Notes under the pieces: generated by a model | What the model was told of the DNA's origin: nothing | The model's input: the letters and a program-made list of their open reading frames with translations, nothing else | Databases searched by the model: none | Shown here: one piece after another, positions 14,389-44,230 of the stretch | Numbering within the stretch: the stretch's first letter is position 1 | How the letters are laid out: every line of letters starts with the position of its first letter | NCBI GenBank assembly: GCA_046350615.1 | Contig: JAXMAA010000002.1 | Coordinates: 85,204 to 149,203 of the forward strand | Source of the DNA: Candidatus Saccharimonadales bacterium | GTDB lineage: Bacteria > Patescibacteriota > Saccharimonadia > Saccharimonadales > UBA7683 | Length of the DNA stretch: 64,000 nt | Direction of reading: 5' to 3' | Position numbers and translations under genes: made by a program

Positions 14389-14768
14389 CCAGAGCATGAG
14401 CGGTTTGCAAACTCTATACAGAATATGATAACCTGAAGTTGACAAAGCAAAATAAAAAAGGAAAATAAGATGAAATCTCTAAAAGGTCATATCTCTAAGC
14501 TGGGGCTGCTCATTGTAATAGCGAGTGCCGGCCTATTTTTGTTTAACGGTAAAGCTGCATTTGCCGCCACAAAAACCTGGACCGGTTCCGGTGGCAACAG
14601 TAACCTCGCCACAGCAGGTAACTGGCAAGGTGGTGTGGCACCCGTTGATGGTGATAGTCTCGCTTTTGGAAGCGGCTCATCGTTGACGCTGAATAATGAC
14701 CTTAGTTCTTCCATTGTAGTAGATGGCTTTGATACAGGGAGAACGGTTTCTATTCCAGGCGCACAGTA

Positions 14769-14789
14769 CCCCGACCGTAAGGTCGTGGG
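14769..14789 (+). repeat. IS left-end subterminal hairpin
   Basis: CCCCGACC-GTAA-GGTCGTGGG forms a stem with a bulged T, 15 nt inside the proposed left junction. Confidence 0.7.
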
Positions 14790-14854
14790 CAGTATGCCCT
14801 AACCCACTAGCTTGTTTGCCGCTTTCGGCCTGCACCGACTATCATGAGTAGGTA

Positions 14855-15292
14855 ATGCCAACGCTCTATCGTCATAAATCCCACTGTGTATTCCTCTGTG
14901 ACTACCATATAGTGTTTCCGACCAAATACCGACGCAGTATCATCAACGAAGGCGTTAAGGCCTTCATTACATCTCGTATCAAAGAAATCCAGGACCACTA
15001 CCCTGAAGTCATCTTCAAAACTGCCAATACCGACAAAGACCACATACACATGCTCGTTTCCATTCCACCAACGTGGTCCGTAGGTAAGGTGGTGGGTATA
15101 ATTAAGGCAAACACTGCAAGAGGCATGAAGGCCGAGCTACCATTTCTAAAAAAGATCTACTGGGGCACAGACAGTATTTGGTCGGAAGGCTACTTTGTTA
15201 GCACAGTTGGCATAAACGAAAGCACTATACGAAGCTACATAGAAAACCAAGGCAAACAGGATAGTGGGCAAACTAACCTTCGGTTAGTTTGA
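14855..15292 (+). CDS. tnpA: IS200/IS605 family Y1 transposase TnpA
   Basis: 145 aa. It has the HUH region DHIHMLVSIPP, a CDYHIVFPTKYRR N-terminus and the catalytic Tyr region SEGYFVSTVG. Confidence 0.9.
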   Translation: MPTLYRHKSHCVFLCDYHIVFPTKYRRSIINEGVKAFITSRIKEIQDHYPEVIFKTANTDKDHIHMLVSIPPTWSVGKVVGIIKANTARGMKAELPFLKKIYWGTDSIWSEGYFVSTVGINESTIRSYIENQGKQDSGQTNLRLV

Positions 15293-15303
15293 AGGAGCCA
15301 ATA

Positions 15304-15324
15304 CCCCGACCGTGAGGTCGTGGG
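15304..15324 (+). repeat. IS right-end subterminal hairpin
   Basis: CCCCGACC-GTGA-GGTCGTGGG forms a hairpin ending 9 nt before the proposed right junction. Confidence 0.7.
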
Positions 15325-16641
15325 AAGTTTATTAATGGCGCAGAACTTAAAGTAAAAGGGAACTTCACCTCTAGCCAAGATGGTAGCTTCACTTTCAATA
15401 ATACTCTTAATGTGACAGATGACGTCATTATATCAGCAAGGTTTGTTAATTTTGGTGGCGACTTAATTGGTAATGGCGATATAACACAAGGCTACACCGG
15501 ACAATACAAAGGCACGTTGTTACTGGGAGACCCTGATGGTAATGGCAATGGCTCTTTTGGTGGTGGGATCTCTGTAGATAATGTAGATCTCTGTGTAGAA
15601 ACAGGTCCTACGATTTTTGGATCATCCGCAAAAGGCACAAGCATAATAAACGGAGGACTGTATCTAGAATCAATCAGTCAGAGCGTGACGATCAGTGAGC
15701 CATTTAACTTGAATAACGCCAGGATCGATGCGTGGGCTGGTAGGTGCAATATGGGCGGAGGTGGCAATGAGCAAAAATTACCATATATCGTTACTTTGTC
15801 TGGGGCAATCTCCGCGAGCAACGGGGTAACCTATGGTGGCACGGTAGACGCTCTTTTGAGTGGGGTCGTTAATGGGGCAATAAGCCTAAGGCAGGGTTCT
15901 CTCGGTAACCTAACAATCGGAAGCTCCACACAGGTTTCGGGAGAGGTGACGGTACCCATTGAGGAATCCGACGACTGCGAAAGTAGTTTCGCAGTCGGCA
16001 AAAATTACAAATATATTGTAAGTGCATCCTGCACAAACACTACGGCATATATTGCGGGCATCCTTATGGGGAGCGGAGCTCTGGGTAACACCAATGTAGA
16101 ATCCGGGGGCAAAATCGCTCCTGGTAATAGTCCTGGCGTACTTTCAACTGGTAATCTTGCATTCGAAGAAGGAGGCATATACGATTTTGAGATCGCTGGC
16201 GATGAGGCTGGTCAATACGATCAGATTAATGTAACTGGAACTGTGAATCTGGGCAATGGAATCCTGAGTATCAGTCAGCTTGATGGCTTCAAACCGAGTG
16301 CTGGAAAGTCGTTTGTGATTATTGCTAATGATGGTGATGACGTTGTTGAGGGTACGTTTAAAGATTTGCCACAGGGTGCAACCATTACTGTTGATGGTGC
16401 AGCCTATACCATTAGCTATACGGGAGGTGACGGGAATGATGTTGAACTCACAGCGATTCCAAGTGGATCAAACACTGGCAATCCTAAGAACTCCACGCCT
16501 GTCGCTTATATCGTTGGTGCAGGGTTGATTAGTGCCGCAATAGTAGTTAAAAAATTAAAGAAGTTACAGCGAAGAAGATAATTGACTAAAGCGTCACTCA
16601 TCTGTATCATAATAAGCATAAGAAAAAAGGAACCACCACCT

Positions 16642-29889: not shown

Positions 29890-30549
29890 GTGAATATGAA
29901 AAAAGCTGATGCGATAGCGCTGAGAGATGCTGGTTATTCGTACTCAATCATTTCAAAACGATTGAATATTGCTAAGAGCACCTTGAGCAGCTGGTTTAGA
30001 GATCGCCCATTTACGCCAAATGAAGAAACGCTCGCAAGTGCTCGTTCAGGACGCTTGTCTTACGGTTTACTCAAGAAGCAACAGCGAGAAGATGAGACAA
30101 AGCGGCTGATTGAAAAGGGCAGAGAGGAGGTAGGTACTATATTAAAACGTGATCTTTGGATGGCGGGGCTGGGTTTGTGGCTTGGCGAAGGGGCTAAGAC
30201 CAACGAACAGTTGCGTCTTGCCAACTCCGACCCACGGATTATCCAGTTGTGGATGCGTTGGTTACGTGAAGTATGTGATTTAAATGACCAGAACATCACT
30301 GTTCGCATGCACTTGTACAGCGACAGTGACCAAAGTGAGTGCCAAGATTTCTGGAGTTCAGTGACTGGTTTAGGTGAGCGCTCTTTTAGAAAAACGCAAA
30401 TCGATACACGGCTTCAGAAGGTGAAGGGTAAAAAAGGGAATTTGCCATACGGGACGTTGCACGTAAGCGTAGTGGGCAATGGAAACCCTGACTTTGGCGT
30501 TCGATTGTTTCGTAAAATGAACGGATGGTTATCTGCTATACTGGCATAA
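29890..30549 (+). CDS. HTH plus LAGLIDADG-like putative homing endonuclease
   Basis: 219 aa. It has an N-terminal HTH (GYSYSIISKRLNIAKSTLSSWF) and LWMAGLGLWLGEGAK, which resembles a single LAGLIDADG motif. The assignment is tentative. Confidence 0.4.
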   Translation: MNMKKADAIALRDAGYSYSIISKRLNIAKSTLSSWFRDRPFTPNEETLASARSGRLSYGLLKKQQREDETKRLIEKGREEVGTILKRDLWMAGLGLWLGEGAKTNEQLRLANSDPRIIQLWMRWLREVCDLNDQNITVRMHLYSDSDQSECQDFWSSVTGLGERSFRKTQIDTRLQKVKGKKGNLPYGTLHVSVVGNGNPDFGVRLFRKMNGWLSAILA

Positions 30550-39366: not shown

Positions 39367-39443
39367 GCACGCGTAGCTCAGTGGATTAGAGCATCTGTCT
39401 TCGGAACAGAGGGTCGTAGGTTCGAATCCTACCGCGTGTACCA
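39367..39443 (+). tRNA. tRNA-Arg(TCG)
   Basis: The cloverleaf is GCACGCG TA GCTC AGTGGATTA GAGC A TCTGT CTTCGGA ACAGA GGGTC GTAGG TTCGAAT CCTAC CGCGTGT A CCA. Confidence 0.9.
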
Positions 39444-39485: not shown

Positions 39486-39562
39486 GGGCCAGTAGCTCAG
39501 CTGGTTAGAGCACCTGCCTCTTAAGCAGGGTGTCGAGGGTTCAAGTCCCTCCTGGCCCTCCA
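39486..39562 (+). tRNA. tRNA-Lys(CTT)
   Basis: The cloverleaf is GGGCCAG TA GCTC AGCTGGTTA GAGC A CCTGC CTCTTAA GCAGG GTGTC GAGGG TTCAAGT CCCTC CTGGCCC T CCA. Confidence 0.92.
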
Positions 39563-39647
39563 TTCTGAATAACAGATACAGTTTCAACCAAGTTAATGCT
39601 TCTCAATTTTGAGGGGCATTTTCAATCTGTTAAAAAGTTCTAGTCTC
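39553..39647 (+). repeat. cassette-array repeat R1 (starts inside the tRNA-Lys 3' end)
   Basis: The sequence is TGGCCCTCCATTCTGAATAACAGATAC...AATGCTTCTCAATTTTGAGGGGCATTTTCAATCTGTTAAAAAGTTCTAGTCTC. About nine in ten positions match R2 and R3 by manual alignment. Confidence 0.85.
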
Positions 39648-39655
39648 TGATGCTC

Positions 39656-39684
39656 TAAGCAAACTGTGTCGGCTTTGCTATAGT
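39656..39684 (+). promoter_or_regulatory. predicted promoter of cassette 1 (TAAGCA-17 nt-TGcTATAGT)
   Basis: The extended -10 ends 6 nt before the ATG at 39691. The same architecture recurs at 40697-40725 and 41517-41545. Confidence 0.5.
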
Positions 39685-39690
39685 AGAATC

Positions 39691-40569
39691 ATGAGTGAGC
39701 AAAATAACCAGATAGAATTAAGTAAGCCAACTATTGCAGAGCTACCGGTGACCGTACAGGCCTTATGTGACTGGCAACAAGACGGTGATATCGTACAGCT
39801 ACACCCAGGTGACTTGGGCTGGTACGGTAGGATGGGTACCGAAGACACAATTGAGGCTATTAGAACATGGAAGCGCAATGACCAGACGGTAGCAATCGGA
39901 CTGCTTGATGGTAGGGATTTGTTACGAATTGCAATAGACCCCACTGTGACTGAAGACCCAGCTCTTGCAGATAGAATGGCAGAAGATTCAACAAATCCTG
40001 AAAATGGAGTTCTTCCTGAAGGTGCAGCAACGGTTGAAGCTCGGTCAGGCAGCTTGCTAAAAGACAGGCTTATCGCCCATGGTTGGGAAAAGGGTGAGCC
40101 GTGGACTTCGTTAAAGCGTGACCTATCTGAACCGGTTGAAGATAGCGGGCTAAGAATAGAAGTTGTTACTTCTGACCAAACACAAGACCGTGTGGCCGTT
40201 CAGCAAGCCTCCTTTGATAATTCTACATTCACAGAAGAGAAATGGCACGCAATGGCAGCTGGATTGCCATACAAAGAAGCGAGATGTTTAGTAGGATACG
40301 ACGAGGATAATCCAGTGGCGATTGCAACAGTTTGGTCTGCTGGAGTAGGTAAGCCAGGGCTTATTGAGCCACTAGGAGTTGATAATAATCATCGTCGTAA
40401 AGGCTATGGCAGAGCAATAACTTTAGCTGCTGCAGGTGCGTTGCGGGAAATGGGCTCATCAAGCGCAACTGTTTGTACAGATAGTGTAAATGTTGGGGCA
40501 GTCGCTACTTACAAATCTGCAGGTTTTGAAGAGCTACCAGATATTGAAGATTTAACCCGTAGACGTTAA
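39691..40569 (+). CDS. two-domain GNAT family N-acetyltransferase
   Basis: 292 aa. The C-terminal acetyl-CoA motif is LGVDNNHRRKGYGRAITLAAAGAL. The N-terminal half is a degenerate GNAT-like domain. Confidence 0.7.
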   Translation: MSEQNNQIELSKPTIAELPVTVQALCDWQQDGDIVQLHPGDLGWYGRMGTEDTIEAIRTWKRNDQTVAIGLLDGRDLLRIAIDPTVTEDPALADRMAEDSTNPENGVLPEGAATVEARSGSLLKDRLIAHGWEKGEPWTSLKRDLSEPVEDSGLRIEVVTSDQTQDRVAVQQASFDNSTFTEEKWHAMAAGLPYKEARCLVGYDEDNPVAIATVWSAGVGKPGLIEPLGVDNNHRRKGYGRAITLAAAGALREMGSSSATVCTDSVNVGAVATYKSAGFEELPDIEDLTRRR

Positions 40570-40577
40570 CCTCGGCC

Positions 40578-40688
40578 GCTATAACGTCGACAATGGCCCT
40601 CCAATTTGAATAACAGATACAATTTTAGTCAAGTTAATGCTTCCCAATTTCGAGAAGCATTTTCAATCTGTTAAAAAGTTCTAGTCTC
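40578..40688 (+). repeat. cassette-array repeat R2
   Basis: It consists of GCTATAACGTCGACAATGGCCCTCCA followed by the AATTTGAATAACAGATAC...GTTCTAGTCTC module. Confidence 0.85.
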
Positions 40689-40732
40689 ACTTGCCCTAAG
40701 TAATTCCTGTGCATTTTGCTAAAATGTATTCA

Positions 40733-41395
40733 ATGAATAAAAACGCAGATGACCTAGCTCAAACTATCTGGGATTACATGTTAATGAACCAGTCTATAGA
40801 AAAGGCTGATATCATTATTGGTTTTGGAAGCCACGATAAGCGCACTGCAAAGTGGGTGGCACAACTTTACTTAGATGGCTATGCGCCAACTATATTATTC
40901 TGCGGAAATGAAGGTCATGGAAGAAAAATAAGCGGCTTTGATGGTATCCCTGAAGCGGAAACATATAAAGCTGAGGCTATAAGACTTGGCGTACCTGAGT
41001 CGGATATCAAGACTGAAAGCAAGTCCACTAATACAGGCGAGAACATACAGTTTGCCGCCCAGTTCATAGATGAGACTAAAATTGAAGTAAAAAAGGCCAT
41101 CATTGTTCACAAGCCCTACATGGAGCGTCGTACATACGCAACTATAAAAGCTCAGTGGCCTGCGCCACAGCCAGAATTTATTATGAGTTCTGTGCCTATT
41201 ACATACGAGGAATATATAACCGACCCATTATACCCAAGAGATTACATGATGAATGTCATGGTAGGAGATTTGCAGAGAATCATTGAATACCCCAAGCTGG
41301 GCTTTCAGGTAAGCCAACAAGTTCCCGATAATATCGTTGCTGCAATGAATGAGCTAATCAAACTTGGATACGATAAAAATCTGATTGAATCATAG
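40733..41395 (+). CDS. DUF218 (YdcF/ElyC-like) domain protein
   Basis: The start is chosen at the ATG at 40733, by analogy with the other cassettes. Motifs are DIIIGFGSHD, YAPTILFCG, EAETYKAEAIRLGVPESDI and ESKSTNTGENI. Confidence 0.6.
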   Translation: MNKNADDLAQTIWDYMLMNQSIEKADIIIGFGSHDKRTAKWVAQLYLDGYAPTILFCGNEGHGRKISGFDGIPEAETYKAEAIRLGVPESDIKTESKSTNTGENIQFAAQFIDETKIEVKKAIIVHKPYMERRTYATIKAQWPAPQPEFIMSSVPITYEEYITDPLYPRDYMMNVMVGDLQRIIEYPKLGFQVSQQVPDNIVAAMNELIKLGYDKNLIES

Positions 41396-41397
41396 AC

Positions 41398-41508
41398 GCT
41401 ATAACGTCGACAATGGACCTCCAATCTGAATAACAGATACGATTTCAGTCAAGTTAATGCTCTTCAATTTTGAGGGGCATTTTCAATCTGTAAAATAGTT
41501 CTAGTCTC
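41398..41508 (+). repeat. cassette-array repeat R3
   Basis: It consists of GCTATAACGTCGACAATGGACCTCCA followed by the AATCTGAATAACAGATAC...GTTCTAGTCTC module. Confidence 0.85.
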
Positions 41509-41552
41509 ACATGCTATAAGCAATTCGCCTCTGTTTTGATATTATGTAAATC

Positions 41553-42200
41553 ATGAAACTATATTTATCATAATACGGAATAGGTAATTATCCTGAAAAA
41601 CTCAAAGAGCTTGTAGGTAAGGAGGGTGCAAAGGTTGCGGTTAGCGTGAATGCTCTCGATTTCTCAATTGATTTGCCGAGAGTCGCTCAAAGACTGGAAG
41701 ACGAGATTAAGGGGCTTGCTGCACTTGGCTTTATGGCTGAGCAACTGGACTTGCGGAATTATTTTGATAACGGTAATCTAGCAGAAGTTCTAAAGAATTA
41801 TGACATGGTCTGGATTACGGGTGGAAATACGTTTATTTTAGCCAAGGCATTTAGGCAAAGTGGTTTTGACAAAGTTTTTGAAGACCTCGTTGCGTCTGGG
41901 CAACTTGTATATGGTGGATATAGTGCGGCATTTTGTGTATTAGCAAAATCACTTCACGGCATCGAGCTTGTCGATGATAAGGATGCGGAAGTTGAGAGTT
42001 ATGAGTCGGGCGAGGTTTGGGAGGGGCTGGGTGTCATAGATTTTCACCCTATAGTTCATTTCAGGTCTAATCATCATGAATCCGACGATGTTGAAAAAGA
42101 GTACGAATATGTCGTTAAAAATAAGATTCCTCACAAAACATTTAAGGACGGAGATGTTTATCTAGTAAATGGTGACCAGAAGACTGTGCTATCAGAGTAG
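41553..42200 (+). pseudogene. S51 peptidase (dipeptidase E-like) gene with an in-frame TAA at codon 7
   Basis: The ATG at 41553 reads MKLYLS, then TAA at 41571-41573, then continues in the same frame as YGIGNYPEKLKELVG... into the track ORF 41646-42200. That ORF contains ITGGNTF and GGYSAAF. Confidence 0.55.
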
Positions 42201-42225
42201 CTATAATATAGACAACGGACTTCCA
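42200..42225 (+). repeat. cassette-array terminal repeat R4 (degenerate 26-mer only)
   Basis: GCTATAATATAGACAACGGACTTCCA has 6 mismatches to the R2 26-mer. It is not followed by the conserved module. Confidence 0.6.
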
Positions 42226-42247
42226 TACAAGAACTAAAGACAAATTA

Positions 42248-42275
42248 AAACCCCTCTGCACCTAGAGGGGTTTCT
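42248..42275. terminator. bidirectional terminator hairpin between convergent genes
   Basis: AAAACCCCTCT-GCACCT-AGAGGGGTTTCT. Confidence 0.55.
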
Positions 42276-43364: not shown

Positions 43365-43411
43365 GCCCTGCTGGTTTAATTTTTACTCTACCTCTGTTAC
43401 ACTGAAGGGTA

Positions 43412-44230
43412 ATGAAAGAATTAAACGGTTCCGAACTAGCCGGTTTTATCAAAGAGCGTCAAGCGAAGGCGGTGCGCGGCTTACGTCAAGCCTATAACTT
43501 CCAGCCGAAACTTGCGATTGTAGTAACGGTTGAAAAGCCTGTAATCGAGATTTATATGCGCCTGAAAAAGCGCTATGGTGCCGATATCCTGATTGATGTC
43601 GACATCCATAGAGTTGAGCAATCCGAAGCACTGGCCGCTATCAAAAAGCTCAATCAAGATGCTGCCACACATGGCATTATTGTTCAATTACCGCTTGAAG
43701 ATCCGTCGCAGACTGATGAAATTGTGAATGCGGTTGCGCCTGAAAAAGACGTGGACGCGCTTGGCCAGGAGGCTATGTTTGATCCGGCCACGCCAACCGC
43801 AATTTTGTGGCTGCTTGCCGGATACGGCGTTGAGCTACGAGGGCGAAAAATTACCATTGTCGGTAGGGGCAAATTGGTTGGTGAACCGCTTGAGCGGATG
43901 CTGCGTGCCTCTCAAATTGATGCAACGGCCTATAATGAGTCTGATACGATTGAGGCCGCGGTAAGTAGCTCAGATATTATTATTACTGCCACAGGTTCAC
44001 CAGGTGTTATTACCAGCGAGATGATTCCCTTGAATGCCGTTGTGGTGGACGCTGGAGTGGCGGTTGAGGCTGGCAAGGCAGTAGGTGATTTAGCCGAGGA
44101 TGTGTACGAACGAGATGATCTTAAAATTACTCCCAAAAAAGGTGGCGTTGGCCCACTCACCGTCTGCGCATTATTTGAGAATGTCATTAAAGCCGCCAAG
44201 ATTTCCGCAGGAATAGATCTTAGAGCTTAG
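43412..44230 (+). CDS. folD: bifunctional methylenetetrahydrofolate dehydrogenase/cyclohydrolase FolD
   Basis: 272 aa. Motifs are GIIVQLPL, VVGRGKLVGEPL and KKGGVGPLTVCALFENV. Confidence 0.9.
   Translation: MKELNGSELAGFIKERQAKAVRGLRQAYNFQPKLAIVVTVEKPVIEIYMRLKKRYGADILIDVDIHRVEQSEALAAIKKLNQDAATHGIIVQLPLEDPSQTDEIVNAVAPEKDVDALGQEAMFDPATPTAILWLLAGYGVELRGRKITIVGRGKLVGEPLERMLRASQIDATAYNESDTIEAAVSSSDIIITATGSPGVITSEMIPLNAVVVDAGVAVEAGKAVGDLAEDVYERDDLKITPKKGGVGPLTVCALFENVIKAAKISAGIDLRA

Follow-up and report, generated by a model that had tools for sequence, protein, structure and literature searches.

A conserved hairpin module at the boundaries of tandem one-gene cassettes anchored at a tRNA-Lys gene in Saccharimonadales, a probable insulating terminator

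The window analysed here, a 64,000-nucleotide (64-kb) stretch of a metagenome-assembled genome (MAG) of Saccharimonadales, carries three tandem one-gene cassettes at the 3' end of a tRNA-Lys(ctt) gene, with 85-nt repeats as their boundaries. Positions refer to the window, and the array features given below are on the + strand. The tRNA-Lys gene (39486-39562; ARAGORN, Rfam 72.1 bits), whose 3' end is the anchor of the array and its attB-like side, lies downstream of a tRNA-Arg(tcg) gene (39367-39443; ARAGORN, Rfam tRNA 71.1 bits); murB, tRNA-Arg, a TM2-like ORF, a DUF1801 gene and FolD are the neighbours of the array. The last nine nucleotides of the tRNA-Lys gene, GGCCCTCCA (39554-39562), comprise the acceptor 3' strand with CCA and form the first copy of a core identified from the sequence, the junction list and breakpoint mapping. 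This 9-bp core is present at every junction, as the variant GGACCTCCA at 41415 and in the degenerate form GGACTTCCA at 42217. Sequence and alignment give the order tRNA-core-module...arm-core-module...arm-core-module...arm-degenerate core-chromosomal flank. Three circular units inserted site-specifically and in tandem would be expected to leave this arrangement, which suggests that the array arose in this way. In the alignment, a shared arm, GCTATAACGTCGACAAT, precedes core copies 2-4 and is absent from copy 1, and the module follows core copies 1-3 and is absent after copy 4. A repeat search returned a longer family than the 85-nt module, of 161 nt, which starts inside tRNA-Lys(ctt) and recurs at spacings of 1041 and 820 nt with 73-82% identity.

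The first module, R1 (39563-39647; sequence, alignment and folding, with a covariance model match of 27.1 bits), begins directly at the tRNA end and includes the conserved motif AGTTCTAG at 39636-39643. It is followed by the gene of cassette 1 (39691-40569), which encodes a 292-aa GNAT acetyltransferase (Pfam Acetyltransf_1, 3.4e-10). Junction 2 (40578-40603) consists of the left arm GCTATAACGTCGACAAT (40578-40594) and the core GGCCCTCCA (40595-40603), and is homologous to TAGTTGCGATAGCGTCTACGGT+GGCCCTCCA in 74 junctions. Module R2 (40604-40688) then leads to the gene of cassette 2 (40733-41395), a DUF218 protein (Pfam DUF218, 2.2e-15) with its likely start at ATG 40733 and a further in-frame ATG upstream at 40724. 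Junction 3 (41398-41423; sequence, alignment), with the left arm GCTATAACGTCGACAAT at 41398-41414 and the core variant GGACCTCCA at 41415-41423, precedes module R3 (41424-41508) and the gene of cassette 3 (41553-42200), a Peptidase S51 (Pfam Peptidase_S51, 1.3e-15). The last junction (42200-42225), assigned from alignment and sequence as attR-like and degenerate, has the left arm GCTATAATATAGACAAC and the core GGACTTCCA, with no module after it. Past the array, a terminator scan called a bidirectional terminator-like hairpin in the chromosomal flank (42247-42274).

It should be mentioned that the Peptidase S51 gene has an in-frame TAA (41571-41573) as its codon 7 (MKLYLS*YGIGNYPEKL...). A Peptidase S51 gene with a similar N-terminus, which occupies a cassette position upstream of the first junction in a related contig (L109), reads MKLYLSSYFLGN here. 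The window copy is either a pseudogene or restarts further downstream.

Each gene of the array is preceded by an extended −10 box at a very short distance from its ATG: TGCTATAGT (39676-39684), 6 nt before ATG 39691; TGCTAAAAT (40717-40725), 7 nt before ATG 40733; and TGATATTAT (41537-41545), 7 nt before ATG 41553. A leaderless start is predicted from this geometry. Among 61 cassettes, counted with those of the related arrays described below, a TGnTAnnnT box lies ~6 nt before the ATG in 39, and a Shine-Dalgarno-like motif was found in only four. Beyond the array, 6 nt likewise separate an extended −10 box, TGTTACACT, from the ATG of the FolD gene (43390-43414). Since FolD has the same geometry, leaderless starts seem to be general in this genome or lineage and not specific to the cassettes.

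A preliminary description of this DNA had reported the three modules as nested hairpins, with an outer stem ACAGAT/ATCTGT around an inner stem of 12 bp. The three copies and their hairpins are confirmed in the sequence, and the outer arms are found in all three (39572-39577 and 39625-39630 in R1). The inner stem is present too, with 11 bp in R1, where AATGCTTCTCA (39595-39605) pairs with TGAGGGGCATT (39610-39620) around a 4-nt loop (39606-39609); the supposed 12th pair would leave a loop of 2 nt. The inner hairpin is formed by 40636-40646 with 40651-40661 in R2 and by 41456-41466 with 41471-41481 in R3. There are two T·G wobbles in each of R1 and R3. As had been described, the T·G positions of R1 are T-A pairs in R2, and where C and T are swapped between R1 and R3 a G is still faced.

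The further claim, that pairing is preserved on the + strand only, holds for R1 and R3 and fails for R2. On the + strand the two private substitutions of R2 create mismatches, C·A and A·C, and leave eight contiguous pairs; on the − strand they become G·U, giving 11 pairs. Folding of both strands agrees with this. R1, R2 and R3 have RNA minimum free energies of −18.7, −14.2 and −19.0 kcal/mol when the + strand is folded; the − strand gives −15.0, −18.2 and −11.1 kcal/mol, so that the + fold is the more stable for R1 and R3 and the − fold for R2. With DNA folding parameters the ordering is the same. Within the three window copies, ~4 substitution events favour the + strand and two the − strand. 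The folding z-scores on the + strand are modest (−2.0 to −2.9), and the outer stem is absent from the minimum-energy fold of R3. A consensus scan called none of the window hairpins as a terminator. The inner stem is followed by the tail TTCAATCT, and the outer stem by the A-rich TAAAAAG.

An exact scan for the window's own hairpin (TTAATGC...GCATTTTCAATCTGT) gave no match in genome contigs or metagenome contigs, and none was obtained in the viral contigs scanned. Related arrays were reached by way of a GNAT homologue in a 3.6-kb metagenome contig (L084) with six junctions, each composed of a stop codon, TAGTTGCGATAnCGTCTACGAT and GGCCCTCCA. Two of the six continue with a module that has the frame ACAGATA...TATCTGTTATTTAGTTCTAG and an inner hairpin different from that of the window. 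A pattern built from this frame, which fixes the stem base and AGTTCTAG, was used to scan metagenomes. Of the 32 loci obtained, 29 are true homologues, and every one of these is an array in which the same arm, core and module recur. Wherever the contig includes the start of the array, that start is a real tRNA-Lys gene, mostly with anticodon ctt and with ttt in L102 and L110; tRNA-Lys(ctt), as in the window, is the anchor in L091, L096, L098, L100, L103, L114, L115, L119, L122 and the four loci L123-L126. The distance from junction to junction has a median of 681 bp (range 171-2533; 66 intervals), and 72 of 89 ORFs are co-oriented with the array. The cargo includes Peptidase S51, NUDIX, DUF1801, APH, zeta-like kinases, several toxin-antitoxin pairs and many proteins of unknown function. 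A full-text search of the literature found no published description of such tRNA-anchored cassette arrays, with the reservation that absence from the searched literature is not proof.

Several variants were seen among these loci. L110 has a separate family of left arms (TTCGTACTTAATTCTACGGT). In L120 (2847-3014) a nested module follows a tRNA-Ala(ggc) gene ending ...GCTCCACCA, which takes the place of tRNA-Lys. Units of ~110-190 nt with no ORF recur within arrays. They combine the core with a canonical terminator and with a degenerate copy of the tRNA-Lys 3' half that ends in GGCCCTCCA; ARAGORN calls none of them a tRNA. With the module on the + strand, they are located at L094 1839-2026, L100 2759-2872, L105 2709-2895 and 3528-3718, L115 82-253 and L119 837-1024.

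The GNAT protein of cassette 1 is 73% identical to its homologue in the L084 array and ~58-61% identical to proteins of Streptomyces and other actinomycetes; its closest relatives, at 70-84% identity, are in metagenome contigs. The likeness to actinomycete genes suggests gene exchange with actinomycetes, which include known hosts of Saccharibacteria. No junction repeat accompanies the GNAT homologues of L081/L082 and L085-L090, which lie in other contexts. In L081 (4000-20888) and L082, the homologue (71%) belongs to another type of island, devoid of arm-core repeats, that also carries APH kinases, an ABC-F protein, nucleotidyltransferases, a T4SS coupling protein, a relaxase and a resolvase.

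Two other features of the window are noted. An IS200-type Y1 transposase gene (14855-15292, + strand; Pfam Y1_Tnp, 7e-32) lies within an element at 14768-15330, 25 kb from the array, which appears to be inserted between the halves of one ORF (14470-14802 and 15412-16581); its flanking hairpins, CCCGACCGTAAGGTCGTGGG and CCCGACCGTGAGGTCGTGGG, are unrelated to the cassette module. At 29890-30549, between tRNA-Arg(tct) and tRNA-Gly(tcc), a 219-aa protein with an N-terminal resolvase-type HTH (HTH_23/HTH_7, weak) is encoded. The cassettes were also considered as single-strand transposons of the IS200/IS605 type, and this was rejected: the cassette 3' arm has no hairpin, and the hairpins of the window Y1 transposase, of the form CCCGACCGT(A/G)AGGTCGTGGG, are of unrelated sequence.

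Identical cassettes recur among the arrays with other neighbours, which allowed their boundaries to be mapped. All junction pairs were compared, with a cassette counted as shared at 88% identity or more. In 14 junction pairs with a common upstream cassette and different downstream cassettes, divergence sets in directly after GGCCCTCCA; in six pairs in which only the downstream cassette is common, identity begins at GGCCCTCCA. The breakpoints in these 20 pairs point to a crossover within the 9-bp core. Consequently the hairpin moves together with the downstream gene and is not itself the crossover point; by this assignment the left arm goes with the upstream gene, whereas hairpin and promoter are part of the downstream cassette. 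Conservation around the core, over 74 distinct junctions, is confined to positions −26 to +10 (aTAGTTGCgATAg...AC..TGGCCCTCCAa), and the right-hand side of the junctions falls into several families.

The preliminary view of cassettes separated by a recombination-associated module is borne out by these data. Its proposal that the hairpin serves as an attC-like site is not: breakpoints at GGCCCTCCA, upstream of the hairpin, reject an attC-type crossover inside the hairpin or at its 3' end, many cassettes carry unrelated hairpins, and the integron integrase IntI was not found among the array neighbours or in ten further ORFs of the window. Two other candidate structures were discarded. A tRNA-like minihelix made of left arm and core would require a complementary 5' strand that is not conserved between R2 and R3. 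In the case of a dif/Xer-like site, the resemblance of TTGCGATAG and TTATGCTTAAA to Xer arms is offset by the distance between them, ~20 nt instead of 6.

A candidate enzyme was found in a related locus. L114 encodes a large serine recombinase of 555 aa, in which Resolvase, Recombinase and zinc-ribbon domains are all present; its family numbers 556 proteins at E ≤ 1e-20. Looking up three homologues led to four more loci (L123-L126), and in all five loci examined the 3' end of the recombinase gene adjoins the tRNA-Lys(ctt) core GGCCCTCCA. In L114 the 6-kb recombinase element has arm and core at its end, and the cassette that comes next contains the nested module; in L124 the element likewise ends with arm and core, followed by four arm-core junctions, one of which has the nested module. 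The chromosomal neighbourhood of the recombinase loci (FolD, response regulator) is shared with the window. From this association, the large serine recombinase family is likely the enzyme for the cassettes. Known large serine recombinases recombine attP with attB; for the hybrid sites that array building would involve, the closest precedent is offered by the Ccr enzymes of SCC elements. It is noted that the recombinase ORF in L114 (5165-6832), L123, L124 and L126 extends across the att core and on into the tRNA gene. The end of the protein (...WRARRD...) is therefore encoded by the reverse complement of GGCCCTCCA and by tRNA sequence, and the C-terminus would differ between the integrated and the excised state.

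Within the 64-kb window, tblastn found no homologue of this recombinase. No tyrosine recombinase was found among the array neighbours or in ten further ORFs of the window, and crude regex screens for recombinase motifs gave no match. In the window the cassettes would then move in trans, or the array may be frozen.

The common form of the module is longer than that of the window. It measures 94 nt and is present in 26 copies that are ~87% identical across cassettes with unrelated genes. Its predicted fold has a 16-bp outer stem, ACAGATACcAgTTAGT with ACTAATTtGTATCTGT, and an inner stem of ~9 bp; the hexamer AGATAC occurs in it twice in direct and once in inverted orientation. In a MAFFT alignment of 22 sequences, 93.2% of the cells are paired, as compared with 28-45% when the partner strand is slid, and seven pairs have changed on both sides, a value reached in two of 500 shuffles. 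The first seven pairs of this stem were fixed by the search pattern and carry no information, and the sequences are interrelated, so that counts of cells overstate the number of independent events. A search of Rfam with E values of up to 1 assigned the module to no family.

The window module is a shorter form that is common to its closest relatives, L095, L097 and L108. In these three contigs the inner hairpin, AAAGACTCTCAA/TTGGGAGTCTTT, is followed by TTTTTAT and has the form of a textbook intrinsic terminator; in full, the homologue of these contigs reads AAAGACTCTCAATTTTGGGAGTCTTTTTAT. Four of 11 inner pairs differ on both sides between the window form and L095 and L108, including U-A to A-U and C-G to A-U. 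When these are aligned, 96.7% of the cells are paired. For the inner stem the figure is 96.4%, with R2 alone contributing unpaired cells, two in all. Additional homologous copies keep the stem paired, through compensatory changes. This retention of the hairpin in homologous modules of 29 other contigs is stronger evidence against a chance palindrome than the z-scores of the window copies.

Most sibling cassettes carry, at the equivalent position, a canonical stem followed by a T-run, and in many junctions this is of unrelated sequence, e.g. AAAACAGAGG...CCTCTGTTTTT, AAAACAGAGGtattatgCCTCTGTTTTT and AAACTCCTCtgtttGAGGAGTTTTTT. A crude terminator finder called 50 of 80 junctions on the + strand and 23 of 80 on the − strand; a stricter scan called two, both in L107. 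The + fold is the more stable in 42 of the 54 plain junction hairpins and the − fold in 11 (p = 1.6e-5). For the nested modules (n=26) the corresponding figures are 15 and 11 (p = 0.085), and for random control segments (n=92) 45 and 45 (p = 0.415). The paired cells of the nested module contain 47 G·U and 14 A·C. The strand specificity that had been proposed is therefore clear for junction hairpins as a class, and amounts to a trend for this module, with R2 contradicting it.

We propose, with a probability of roughly 0.6, that the hairpin is an insulating terminator, acting as + strand RNA, at the front of a mobile one-gene cassette that recombines at the tRNA-Lys core. This is the option of the preliminary description that now has the best support, from the canonical terminators of the siblings, the T-run in L095, L097 and L108 and the + fold bias of 42 against 11. 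In the proposed scheme a cassette would be composed, in order, of the core, the hairpin, an extended −10 promoter, a leaderless ORF with its stop codon, and the left arm, ~17-25 nt of conserved sequence beginning at the stop codon or a few bases past it. Recombination would occur at the 9-bp core GGCCCTCCA, with a large serine recombinase moving the cassettes, probably in trans. The hairpin, as + strand RNA, would end transcripts coming from the tRNA or from the preceding cassette, and each cassette would thereby be insulated and expressed from its own promoter. The ACAGAT/ATCTGT pairing of the window modules would be what remains of the 16-bp outer stem of the common form, namely its base. 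Some observations count against a terminator. A module identity of ~87% is more than a terminator alone would need, and a further role is possible for AGTTCTAG and for the stem base; it should be mentioned that the invariance of the stem base is partly forced by the search pattern. The tail in the window is poor and receives no call in the scan, R2 prefers the − strand, and the strand asymmetry of nested modules is weak.

A broader reading, held tentatively and in our judgement more probably wrong than right, sees in the arrays an integron-like gene capture by Saccharimonadales, a CPR lineage, based on a chemistry other than that of integrons, in which a large serine recombinase would insert and reshuffle self-contained cassettes at the CCA end of tRNA-Lys. 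The 94-nt nested-hairpin module would then do more than terminate: it would belong to the site, for example by contributing a B'-like half-site so that the tRNA-proximal junction stays open to further insertion.

The hairpin itself could be a DNA-level part of the recombination site, i.e. a palindromic or folded single-strand (attC-like) binding site, in the right att arm, for the recombinase or for an accessory or directionality factor. The module starts directly at the core, is ~87% identical across cassettes with unrelated genes, and in the common form contains AGATAC twice direct and once inverted. In about 12 of 32 cases it follows a tRNA or tRNA-like 3' end, once that of tRNA-Ala, and G·T wobbles are tolerated in top-strand single-stranded DNA as well. 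However, the breakpoints map to the core, which precedes the hairpin by at least 10-13 nt, conservation over the 74 junctions extends only from −26 to +10, in most cassettes unrelated plain terminator hairpins occupy the same place, and the sequence of the inner hairpin is interchangeable. Inspection by eye shows no attC R/L box pattern, the array neighbours and further ORFs yielded no integron integrase, and the window IS200-type transposase has unrelated hairpins of its own. On this balance we consider a DNA-level role unlikely.

Less probable again is an RNA element other than a terminator, either a 3' stabilising or processing hairpin (e.g. an RNase III or 3'-exonuclease barrier) or else a structured small RNA that would be freed from the transcript of the tRNA or of a cassette. 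The conserved hairpin with compensatory changes and the G·U trend on the + strand would suit such an element, as would the weak U-tract of the window and common forms, and a module located 10-11 nt past the tRNA CCA would be co-transcribed with the tRNA. This reading is opposed by the lack of a match in Rfam, by the canonical terminators at the equivalent position of sibling cassettes, and by the perfect T-run of the closest homologue. Finally, a functionless palindrome copied passively within a duplicated inter-cassette repeat is highly improbable: the window copies are closely related and could have inherited their shared pairing, and R2 has its two + strand mismatches, but distant copies keep their pairing through changes on both sides, and the inner hairpin has been swapped for other sequences that still form hairpins.

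If the arrays were built in the way set out for the insulating terminator, episymbionts with reduced genomes would own a compact cassette system that parallels the integron, with a tRNA anchor, probably a serine recombinase, and a terminator and promoter supplied by each cassette. Such a system would provide a mechanism by which tiny genomes sample accessory genes, such as the actinomycete-like GNAT gene, and its naturally insulated, portable expression units and short-att recombinase might serve as tools.

The arrays can be compared with several known systems. They are like integron arrays (attI/attC with IntI, e.g. the Vibrio chromosomal integron with its VCR repeats) in their tandem, mostly one-gene cassettes in one orientation next to a fixed anchor, in the conserved repeat of ~35-130 nt between genes, in the occurrence of the same cassettes in varied orders, and in a cargo where acetyltransferases, toxin-antitoxin pairs, NUDIX proteins and uncharacterised small proteins abound. 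They differ in being anchored at the end of a tRNA gene (3' side) instead of at attI beside intI, and in that the crossover maps to a 9-bp core outside the hairpin, with the hairpin on the 5' side of the cassette. The cassettes here have their own predicted terminator and promoter, whereas integron cassettes are mostly promoterless, and the associated enzyme is a large serine recombinase, with no IntI found among the ORFs examined. When the modules were checked by eye for attC boxes (R''-L''/L'-R', RYYYAAC...GTTRRRY, with extrahelical bases), AAC...GTT was present at the ends of the outer stem (AACAGAT...ATCTGTT), in the wrong position and polarity for R boxes.

The SCC elements of staphylococci (SCCmec, composite and pseudo-SCC) are similar in being cassettes associated with large serine recombinases at the 3' end of a conserved gene, in forming tandem arrays with short direct repeats between the units, and in that some units have no recombinase of their own. 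A three-domain recombinase adjoining att, which an SCC-like element would be expected to have, is seen in the related loci L114 and L123-L126 (domains checked in L114) and has no homologue in the 64-kb window; the NCBIfam models CcrB and CcrC match the recombinase weakly, with 60-65 bits against a cut-off of 900. SCC units measure 3-60 kb and are inserted in rlmH, in contrast to the units in tRNA-Lys described here, which have a median size of ~0.7 kb, usually a single gene, and a uniform layout of terminator, promoter and ORF.

In tandem tRNA-gene islands, such as the tycheposons of Prochlorococcus and other tRNA-targeting integrative elements, repeated tRNA 3' ends also mark successive insertions. 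Those islands are multi-gene, typically use tyrosine recombinases and carry a longer copy of the tRNA, whereas the core here is only 9-10 bp and is joined by a conserved non-tRNA arm and single-gene units. Intrinsic terminators, for their part, share with the junction hairpins a stem-loop with T-rich sequence between co-directional units and, for the junction class, a + strand folding bias. The window copies deviate from them in a poor U-tract, where at least 5 U in 8 directly after the stem would be expected, failure in the consensus scan, the extra outer pairing and the conserved flanking motifs. The hairpin alone is an ordinary kind of element, a terminator-like insulator, and the system as a whole, on the sequence comparisons made here, resembles an integron or a composite SCC island while having the defining features of neither.
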